From Escherichia phage vB_Eco_F26: 64,000 nt of DNA. Under the pieces are notes generated by a model. The model saw only the letters and a program-made list of their open reading frames with translations, did not search any database and was not told the DNA's origin. The position numbers and the translations under genes are program-made. This document shows positions 3 through 1,183 of the stretch, one piece after another. Every line of letters starts with the position of its first letter. Position 1 is the first letter of the stretch. Where the stretch lies: the sequence record OP870145.1, one strand, 5' to 3'.

Positions 3-374
3 TGGACTAAATCATACATTGATACAAACAAAATGGTTGGAAATACAGTAGGATATGGAACAGTCGGTCCACAAGATAGCTGGTCATTATCTGAACGATA
101 TAATAACCCAGACAACAATTTAGTAGGTCGTGTTGTTGGTCAAGACCCAAATGTTAAGCAAGGTGCTTACAATAATCGTTGGGTGAAAGACTATGCAACA
201 GCTTTAGCTAAAGAATTAAATGGCCAAATTTTAGCACGCCACCAAGGTATGATGCTTCCTGGCGGTGTTACAATTGATGGGCAGCGCTTAATAGAAGAAG
301 CCCGATTAGAAAAAGAAGCACTGCGCGAAGAATTATACTTGCTCGATCCTCCGGTGGGAGTGTTAGTTGGATGA
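3..374 (+). CDS. 13: neck protein gp13, C-terminal part (gene starts before window)
   Basis: Open frame runs off the window start; sits immediately upstream of gene 14 in T4 order; identity from synteny only. Confidence 0.5.
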
Positions 375-1183
375 ATTATACTAAAATTTACAACTCTCTT
401 ATAGAAAGATCTCTTAAAAGAGGTCTTAATAAGAAAAAATTAGATTATTATACAGAATCACACCATATTGTCCCAAAATCCATGGGAGGAGATAATTCTA
501 GAGAAAACAGGGTTTTACTGACAGCAAAAGAACACTATTTTGCACATGAGCTTCTTTTTAAAATACACCGAAATTCTGAAATGGCTTATGCCTTAATAAA
601 ATTCTCCAAGGGTACAAAAGAGCAGAGAATTGTAAGTAAAGATTACGGGTGGATTAAAGAGGAAACATCTAAAATTAGATCAGAAACCATTAAAAAGTTT
701 TGGGCGAATCTATCACCAAATTTAAAACAGGAACGAATTAAAAAAGCCGGAAAAGGCATTAAAAAAACTAAATCTTTATGGACAGATGAAAAGAGAAAAG
801 AAGTTAATGCAAATATTCGAAAAGCTTCAGTGAAATATTTGGAATCGTTATCAGAAAACGAAATGTTAGAATATAAAGAAAGATGTTCTAAACAGATGAA
901 AGATTTTTGGTCTGAGCTTAAAAGTGACCCTCAAAAATACGAAAAGTATTTAAATAAACTATCTAAGGGTCTTGCAAAAGTCGAAAAGAGAAATTGCCCG
1001 CATTGCGGAATTATATGTGATGTAGGAAATTATGGAAAATACCACGGCGATAAATGCAAAGTTATCACGGGTGTATCTCATAGCAGAGAAAAATTAAAAT
1101 GCCCGCACTGCTCTAAAATCATGGATAAGTCTCACGCTAAAAGATACCATTTTGACAATTGCAAATTTAAGAAGGTCGAATAA
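371..1183 (+). CDS. free-standing HNH homing endonuclease (Mob/I-TevIII-like) with C-terminal zinc-finger repeats
   Basis: HNH motif [19 protein letters not shown]; two CPHC..H..C zinc-finger repeats resembling I-TevIII C-terminus; ATGA overlap with gene 13 stop. Confidence 0.8.

Follow-up and report, generated by a model that had tools for sequence, protein, structure and literature searches.

A probable Mob-class homing endonuclease gene at the junction of neck genes 13 and 14 in T4-like phages

Mob-class endonucleases of phage T4 combine an N-terminal HNH domain with a C-terminal zinc finger (Barth et al., PMC10448857). A related arrangement is found in I-TevIII of phage RB3, in which each CX2CX12-13HX3C motif binds one zinc and is needed for DNA binding (Robbins et al. 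2007, PMC1865063). I-TevIII is a dimer that cuts 14/16 bp upstream of its own insertion site, producing a double-strand break with 2-nt 3′ overhangs (PMC1865063). For the free-standing endonuclease gene mobE, the overlap of its start codon with the stop codon of nrdA has been discussed as a translational coupling that limits endonuclease synthesis (PMC2988022, PMC2790892). In phage T6, three mob-like genes and one other HNH endonuclease gene were counted in 2010 (Petrov et al. 2010, PMC2993671). Gene 13 goes unmentioned in a 2010 review of T4 mobile elements (PMC2988022), and full-text literature searches yielded no paper naming, describing or testing the gene that separates genes 13 and 14, or its cleavage, nicking or co-infection behaviour.

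We describe here an endonuclease gene at this position in Escherichia phage vB_Eco_F26 (sequence record OP870145.1), of which a stretch of 64,000 nucleotides, hereafter the window, was analysed. Our best explanation, which we consider probable, is that a Mob-class homing endonuclease gene has been inserted precisely at the gene 13/14 junction.

An endonuclease gene between two neck genes

The window begins within gene 13, whose stop codon TGA (372..374) is followed by gene 14 only after a 270-codon open reading frame outside any intron. This reading frame has an ATG start and a TAA stop (1181..1183). The start codon, at 371..373, shares two bases with the stop codon of gene 13 (GGA TGA, 369..374), forming an ATGA overlap, and a single T separates its own stop codon from the ATG of gene 14. 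A sequence-only reading of this DNA had proposed these coordinates, the length and the overlap, all of which proved exact when the reading frame and sequence were inspected; the position that it gave between the two neck genes agrees with the annotation of matching records and with the alignment to T4. The features of the region are collected in Table 1.

Table 1. Features of the gene 13/14 region, with the intron comparator, in window coordinates
Feature	Position	Strand	Basis
Gene 13, 3′ part (neck protein / head-tail adaptor)	1..374	+	'neck protein' in all matching records; alignment to T4 gene 13
Recoded 18-nt block at the end of gene 13	354..371	+	Comparison of carriers with non-carriers
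Probable free-standing HNH homing endonuclease gene, Mob class, 270 aa	371..1183	+	Pfam, PHROG, similarity to MobE, family alignment
HNH catalytic motif, residues 29-59	455..547	+	Pfam residues 23-53; invariant residues; predicted structure
Central helical linker or DNA-binding region, residues ~89-202	635..976	+	Five long predicted helices
Zinc finger 1 (C209, C212, H225, C229)	995..1057	+	Translation; alignment to I-TevIII finger 1; predicted beta-beta-alpha unit 206-224
Zinc finger 2 (C244, C247, H260, C264)	1100..1162	+	Family alignment; I-TevIII profile; predicted beta-beta-alpha unit 241-259
3′ end of the endonuclease gene: purine-rich GAAGG and TAA-T-ATG junction	1166..1187	+	Comparison with the T4 junction GGTAGGTTAATATG
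Gene 14 (neck protein / head closure), intact	1185..1955	+	Open reading frame and matching records
Comparator outside the element: truncated I-TevIII reading frame of the nrdB intron, 87 aa, both fingers	44210..44473	-	

Positions 1..2000 of the window were compared by megablast with 50,697 phage records. Matches spanning the whole query, including the insert, were found in 46 of the 511 related records, T6 among them. A tblastn search likewise returned 46 records with at least 95% identity to the protein, all others falling below 60%. IMG/VR viral contigs offered only one carrier contig and few Tequatrovirus loci, so the population analysis was carried out on the GenBank phage records. T6 and about 45 other Tequatrovirus genomes carry an orthologue at the same site, with 97-100% protein identity and no difference of substance. 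In the RefSeq record of T6 it is entered as a 'homing endonuclease' (YP_010067306.1) between 'head-tail adaptor Ad2' and 'head closure Hc2', and GenBank holds the identical 270-aa protein as WBF80078.1, 'HNH endonuclease [Escherichia phage vB_Eco_F26]'. The gene is therefore already known, annotated in T6 and in dozens of genomes, and is an ordinary member of a well-known class.

In T4, T2 and RB14 the gene is absent, and in these and other phages genes 13 and 14 are parted by TAA-T-ATG alone. The T4-type empty junction is kept at 95% identity or more over 92 nt in 444 records. These alignments uphold the expectation that typical T4 phages would lack the gene at this locus.

The distribution also bears on the idea of a domesticated nuclease that benefits the phage, either as an interference weapon that would cut the essential neck and terminase operon when relatives co-infect, or as an HNH protein assisting terminase. 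Interference competition between phages by means of an intron endonuclease has been described (PMC11620839), and in cos phages HNH genes are known to neighbour terminase genes (PMC3592412). In the window, the terminase genes (16/17) lie about 1.6 kb downstream of the endonuclease gene, as such a role would suit. T4-type phages, however, package DNA by the headful mechanism with no HNH helper, and interference would be a consequence of homing cleavage and not a separate mechanism. Moreover, about 90% of close relatives, T4 and T2 included, lack the gene yet are fully viable. We consider domestication very improbable, and a terminase-associated HNH role was rejected because most relatives are without the gene.

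Domains and class of the protein

The N-terminal HNH motif noticed in the sequence-only reading was recovered by several routes. Pfam HNH_4 matched residues 25-53 with 23.5 bits against a cutoff of 22; PF01844 HNH scored 17.4 bits, under its cutoff of 21.4. Over its whole length the protein matched PHROG 655, 'homing endonuclease' (E=6e-51), the group to which the T4 mobE locus also belongs. An alignment of 46 family members showed Y3, Y7, E29, H31, H32, P35, N46, L50, E54, H55, H59, L62, C244, C247, H260 and C264 to be invariant, a set that includes the catalytic motif (E29, H31, H32, N46, E54, H55 and H59) and the four ligands of finger 2. H31/H32, N46, H55 and H59 align with the motifs of I-TevIII and MobE. 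An AlphaFold model built on the same alignment had a mean pLDDT of 90; its N-terminal part includes predicted strands 29-32 and 47-50 and a helix at 52-66, all with pLDDT above 90. Helices are predicted at 89-112, 116-135, 139-159, 162-185 and 187-202, and the two beta-beta-alpha units follow. A search of solved structures by sequence gave nothing below E=0.38, and NCBIfam held no meaningful family for the protein.

As read from the translation, both C-terminal fingers have the spacing CX2CX12HX3C (ligands in Table 1), which agrees with the CX2CX12-13HX3C pattern that binds zinc and DNA in I-TevIII. The sequence-only reading had likened them to the I-TevIII remnant of the nrdB intron, and this resemblance is significant in formal alignments. 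With BLASTP, the 270-aa protein matched the 87-aa remnant (44213..44473, minus strand) at 34% identity over 76 aa (E=1e-7), and in hhalign the profile of the 46-member family matched the finger region of I-TevIII with a probability of 98.3% (E=2e-14). Against full-length I-TevIII of RB3 (269 aa), identity was 25% end to end, with 19% gaps (E=1e-5). The finger module is also present in T4 MobE, in a single copy that aligns to finger 2, and in a mobB-like reading frame of RB32.

Similarity to T4 MobE extends further: by tblastn, identity was 31.2% over query residues 1-230, 85% of the length (E=1e-16). The proposal that the gene is a full-length, free-standing relative of an intron endonuclease therefore holds for the homology of the fingers; the module itself is not specific to I-TevIII, and the protein as a whole is nearer to MobE (31% against 25%). 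It is for this reason that we file it as a Mob-class free-standing endonuclease. Its N-terminal HNH domain and C-terminal finger module align with T4 MobE and the RB32 mobB-like reading frame; it stands free between conserved genes, where it is present in some genomes and absent from others; and it is homologous to a characterised member of the class, MobE. The NUMOD3 linker motif, which is common in the class but not strictly defining, was not detected here, with no Pfam match at E≤1. In T4 MobE the motif scores 46 bits, and many homologues carry it (PF07460); among 163 homologues drawn from a large protein collection, the source of the 46 in the family alignment, many have precomputed NUMOD3 and/or HNH domains. 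The gene is, very probably, a Mob-class HNH homing endonuclease gene, and judged by sequence its product is a two-finger member of the class and a distant cousin of the intron enzyme.

Further endonuclease-like reading frames were seen elsewhere in the window. A 230-aa HNH reading frame at 19782..20474 (plus strand) begins MNYKLIY and lacks C-terminal zinc fingers; over residues 1-143 its identity to the 13/14 endonuclease is 35%. It overlaps the stop codon of a 503-aa reading frame (18274..19785) that may encode the UvsW helicase. On the minus strand, nrdA is apparently split into reading frames of 477 aa (48685..50118) and 329 aa (46950..47939), with a 236-aa HNH reading frame of Mob type (47929..48639) between the pieces; over residues 1-106 this frame shares 41% identity with the 13/14 endonuclease. 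Phage Aeh1 has a similar nrdA, in its case described as 'genes in pieces', and two nrdA pieces are annotated in the relatives FL12, FL23 and FL44. At the nrdA-nrdB intergenic position, the place of mobE in T4, a 530-aa reading frame (45341..46933, minus strand) gave a weak, sub-cutoff Pfam match to REase_MTES_1575 and is called a 'Hef-like homing endonuclease' in the annotation of related phages. In residues 2-87, the intron remnant listed in Table 1 matches the C-terminus of RB3 I-TevIII with 100% identity; its identity to the T4 remnant is 97.7%. A search of the whole window with Rfam at gathering thresholds found no RNA family, the nrdB group I intron included.

Insertion site, expression and spread

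In T4, gene 13 closes with CCA, TTTGGAATTTTGGTAGGT and the stop codon TAA, after which a single T leads to the ATG GCT of gene 14. The corresponding stretch in the window is CCG, GTGGGAGTGTTAGTTGGA and TGA, and the endonuclease gene that overlaps it closes with GTC GAA TAA, again followed by T and ATG GCT. The insertion is precise: the insert takes the place of the last base in the final gene 13 codon, and its 3′ end restores TAATATG. Between the two versions of the 18-nt block there are two amino acid changes in the product of gene 13 (F to V and I to V) and three synonymous changes.

The flanks of 11 carriers were compared with those of 10 non-carriers. At six sites, all within the block (-18, -16, -10, -7, -4 and -1), carriers and non-carriers have no base in common. 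Outside the block, the remaining 353 nt on the left and the first 500 nt of gene 14 contain 128 polymorphic sites, which are shuffled among carriers and non-carriers, but no fixed site of this kind. When an empty site with the carrier allele was used as a synthetic query, no record exceeded 92.5% identity over the full length, so that the allele was found in no record without the endonuclease gene. Whatever lies between a homing cut and the endonuclease gene is bound to be co-converted, and a sharp block would therefore be expected if the cut lay no more than about 20 bp upstream of the insertion. From the extent of the block we infer a cut within that distance, and we regard the 18 nt as a candidate cleavage and immunity region.

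The block could alternatively be passenger DNA from the original donor, inseparable from the gene, or the ribosome-binding site within the translation-initiation region of the endonuclease. It would then be neither target nor immunity determinant, and the true cut would lie elsewhere, possibly hundreds of base pairs away, as with SegF, SegG and MobE. The block does contain a Shine-Dalgarno-like GGAG motif 10 nt before the endonuclease ATG, where the substitutions create GGGAG, although a ribosome-binding site would not call for the two substitutions that change residues of an essential protein. The A to G change at -12 is also found in the endonuclease-less phages Lv5cm and CE1. In two metagenomic contigs (L066 and L068), the homologous endonuclease genes follow a T4-like PPFGI coding end of gene 13 and a short spacer; the T4-like F-G-I coding sequence that they keep at the block speaks against a role in immunity. 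Cutting at a distance is common among free-standing T4 endonucleases (PMC2790892, PMC13096335), but the 353 nt to the left and the 500 nt to the right showed no other fixed difference that could mark a distant immune target. We allow this alternative a substantial minority chance and prefer a cut close to the junction.

The T4 late-promoter octamer TATAAATA does not occur in positions 1..5129 of the window, and no plus-strand terminator was found in 1..2200. Sigma-70-like matches numbered 14 against a shuffled background of 9.6 +/- 2.9, which is not clearly above expectation. A late promoter or terminator belonging to the endonuclease gene itself was rejected on these grounds. With no late promoter of its own, the gene would therefore be read from the late transcript covering gene 13. 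At the other end of the insert, GAAGG and the similar purine-rich 3′ ends in L066-L068 may be ribosome-binding sites that preserve the initiation of gene 14. A CCUCC/GGGAG hairpin hiding the ribosome-binding site of the endonuclease was also considered and was dropped: its stability did not exceed that of shuffled controls (z scores -0.39 and -0.55), and it is not conserved in L067.

Among eight intact carriers, the flanks had a mean pairwise divergence of 5.2% (gene 13) and 3.3% (gene 14), against 0.9% for the endonuclease gene, making the gene four to six times more uniform than its surroundings. This pattern fits recent spread into diverged backgrounds. Variable sites fell 6/4/13 on the three codon positions, with the third favoured, and synonymous and non-synonymous codon changes among copies were about equal in number, a combination that indicates weak purifying selection. 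In both F1 and SHFML-26, one nucleotide is missing from an A7 run at about position 761 of each locus, a deletion that splits the reading frame into two annotated 'hypothetical proteins'; it could mark the start of decay or be a homopolymer sequencing error.

An alternative is an inactive or decaying endonuclease that no longer cuts and is kept only by its tight linkage to the essential neck genes or mobilised in trans by another endonuclease. The frameshift common to two of the 11 sampled carriers would suit decay, as would the similar numbers of synonymous and non-synonymous changes, and trans-mobilisation of a defunct endonuclease, the T4 I-TevIII remnant by MobE, is documented in this phage group (PMC2790892). 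The reading frame is, however, intact in the other nine carriers, all catalytic and zinc-ligand residues are conserved, and the window has no other endonuclease gene within 2 kb of this one. The preference for third codon positions and a divergence far below that of the flanks likewise tell against decay, as does the fidelity to the junction among homologues of 51-57% identity, which points to continued function. We judge an inactive endonuclease unlikely.

These homologues (P0002-P0004) come from three metagenomic contigs and are 50-57% identical to the window protein (51-57% by BLASTP, 50-56% in the alignment). Each lies directly upstream of a gp14 homologue in a divergent T4-like contig, and in two of the three the C-terminus of gp13 is visible just upstream. 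The GGATGA overlap recurs in one of them, and conservation is highest in the finger domain. The occurrence of homologues at the same junction in divergent contigs therefore indicates a lineage that has been faithful to the 13/14 junction across divergent T4-like phages.

Other insertions were noted in and around these genes. In the Mosigvirus JM10 (PP400777.1), the 13/14 junction is occupied by an unrelated 211-aa seg-like reading frame (2053-2688 of the locus), with Pfam matches to I-TevI_DNA-bd and NUMOD3, both below cutoff, and an N-terminus, MATY, that is that of gp14. The 13/14 junction seems to be a hotspot at which endonucleases of different families insert. Phage G9062 has a 55-bp insertion in gene 14, by which its annotated gp14 is truncated. 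In contig L066 the gp14 and gp15 homologues are separated by an extra 198-aa NUMOD3 reading frame (1621-2217), probably a further endonuclease gene.

A possible homing cycle and its described counterparts

We lean towards an endonuclease that is currently active and whose target is the 13/14 junction or a site just upstream of it. In the cycle that we propose, the gene would be expressed from the late neck-gene message and, by analogy with nrdA/mobE, translated at a low level through coupling at the ATGA overlap. In a mixed infection with a T4-like phage whose TAATATG junction is empty, the finger domain would bind the conserved junction sequence, and the HNH domain would nick or cut within the final codons of gene 13, at most about 20 bp upstream, as the 18-nt block and the 14/16 bp of I-TevIII suggest. 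Recombinational repair would then copy the endonuclease gene together with adjacent donor markers, which is consistent with the population pattern. The carrier would be protected, its site being split by the insertion and the last 18 nt of gene 13 recoded. Finally, the TAA-T-ATG and GAAGG at the 3′ end of the insert should allow gene 14 still to be translated.

A more extended reading is offered tentatively, and we would not be surprised to see it fail. The gene may belong to an ancient, site-faithful Mob lineage that has occupied the 13/14 junction over several T4-like genera. Its I-TevIII-like, two-finger and possibly dimeric product would cut about 14-18 bp upstream, in the gp13 codons; the 18-nt block, with its two changes in gp13, would be the immunity determinant, and the junction would be a contested hotspot. 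If so, the locus could cause neck, whisker and terminase genes to be co-converted and become mosaic, and it could serve as an interference weapon between co-infecting T-even phages.

This phage group is known for its free-standing endonucleases, and the gene is one more of them. It offers a clean model, with an exact insertion and a suspected target within 18 nt, and the classic laboratory phages provide natural empty (T4, T2) and filled (T6) sites. As a two-finger, full-length relative of I-TevIII, the protein is suited to asking whether dimeric double-strand cutting is general in the class. The seat of the gene in an essential late structural operon could help to explain marker exclusion and mosaicism near the neck and terminase genes in T-even crosses.

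Of the described systems, I-TevIII of RB3 is matched in length (269 against 270 aa), in domain order and in the two tandem C-terminal fingers, and its cutting distance would fall within the 18-nt recoded block of the 13/14 carriers. I-TevIII is encoded in the nrdB group I intron, however, whereas the 13/14 gene is free-standing; its HNH domain matches Pfam HNH_3 in contrast to the HNH_4/HNH of the 13/14 protein; and with only 25% identity overall the two are not close relatives as whole proteins. T4 MobE differs in having one finger and a clear NUMOD3 motif, where the 13/14 protein has two fingers and NUMOD3 is undetected. It also has another insertion site, and presumably another target, and its nick in nrdB falls about 120 nt into that neighbouring gene, while the only endonuclease-linked marks of the 13/14 carriers lie no more than 18 nt from the insertion. 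Both proteins nevertheless have an N-terminal HNH domain of the form MNY...HH...N...EH..H and a C-terminal CPHC...H..C finger, that of MobE matching finger 2. Like the 13/14 gene, mobE stands free between two conserved genes, in its case nrdA and nrdB (PMC2790892), has no promoter of its own and begins with a start codon that overlaps the upstream stop codon (PMC2988022, PMC2790892).
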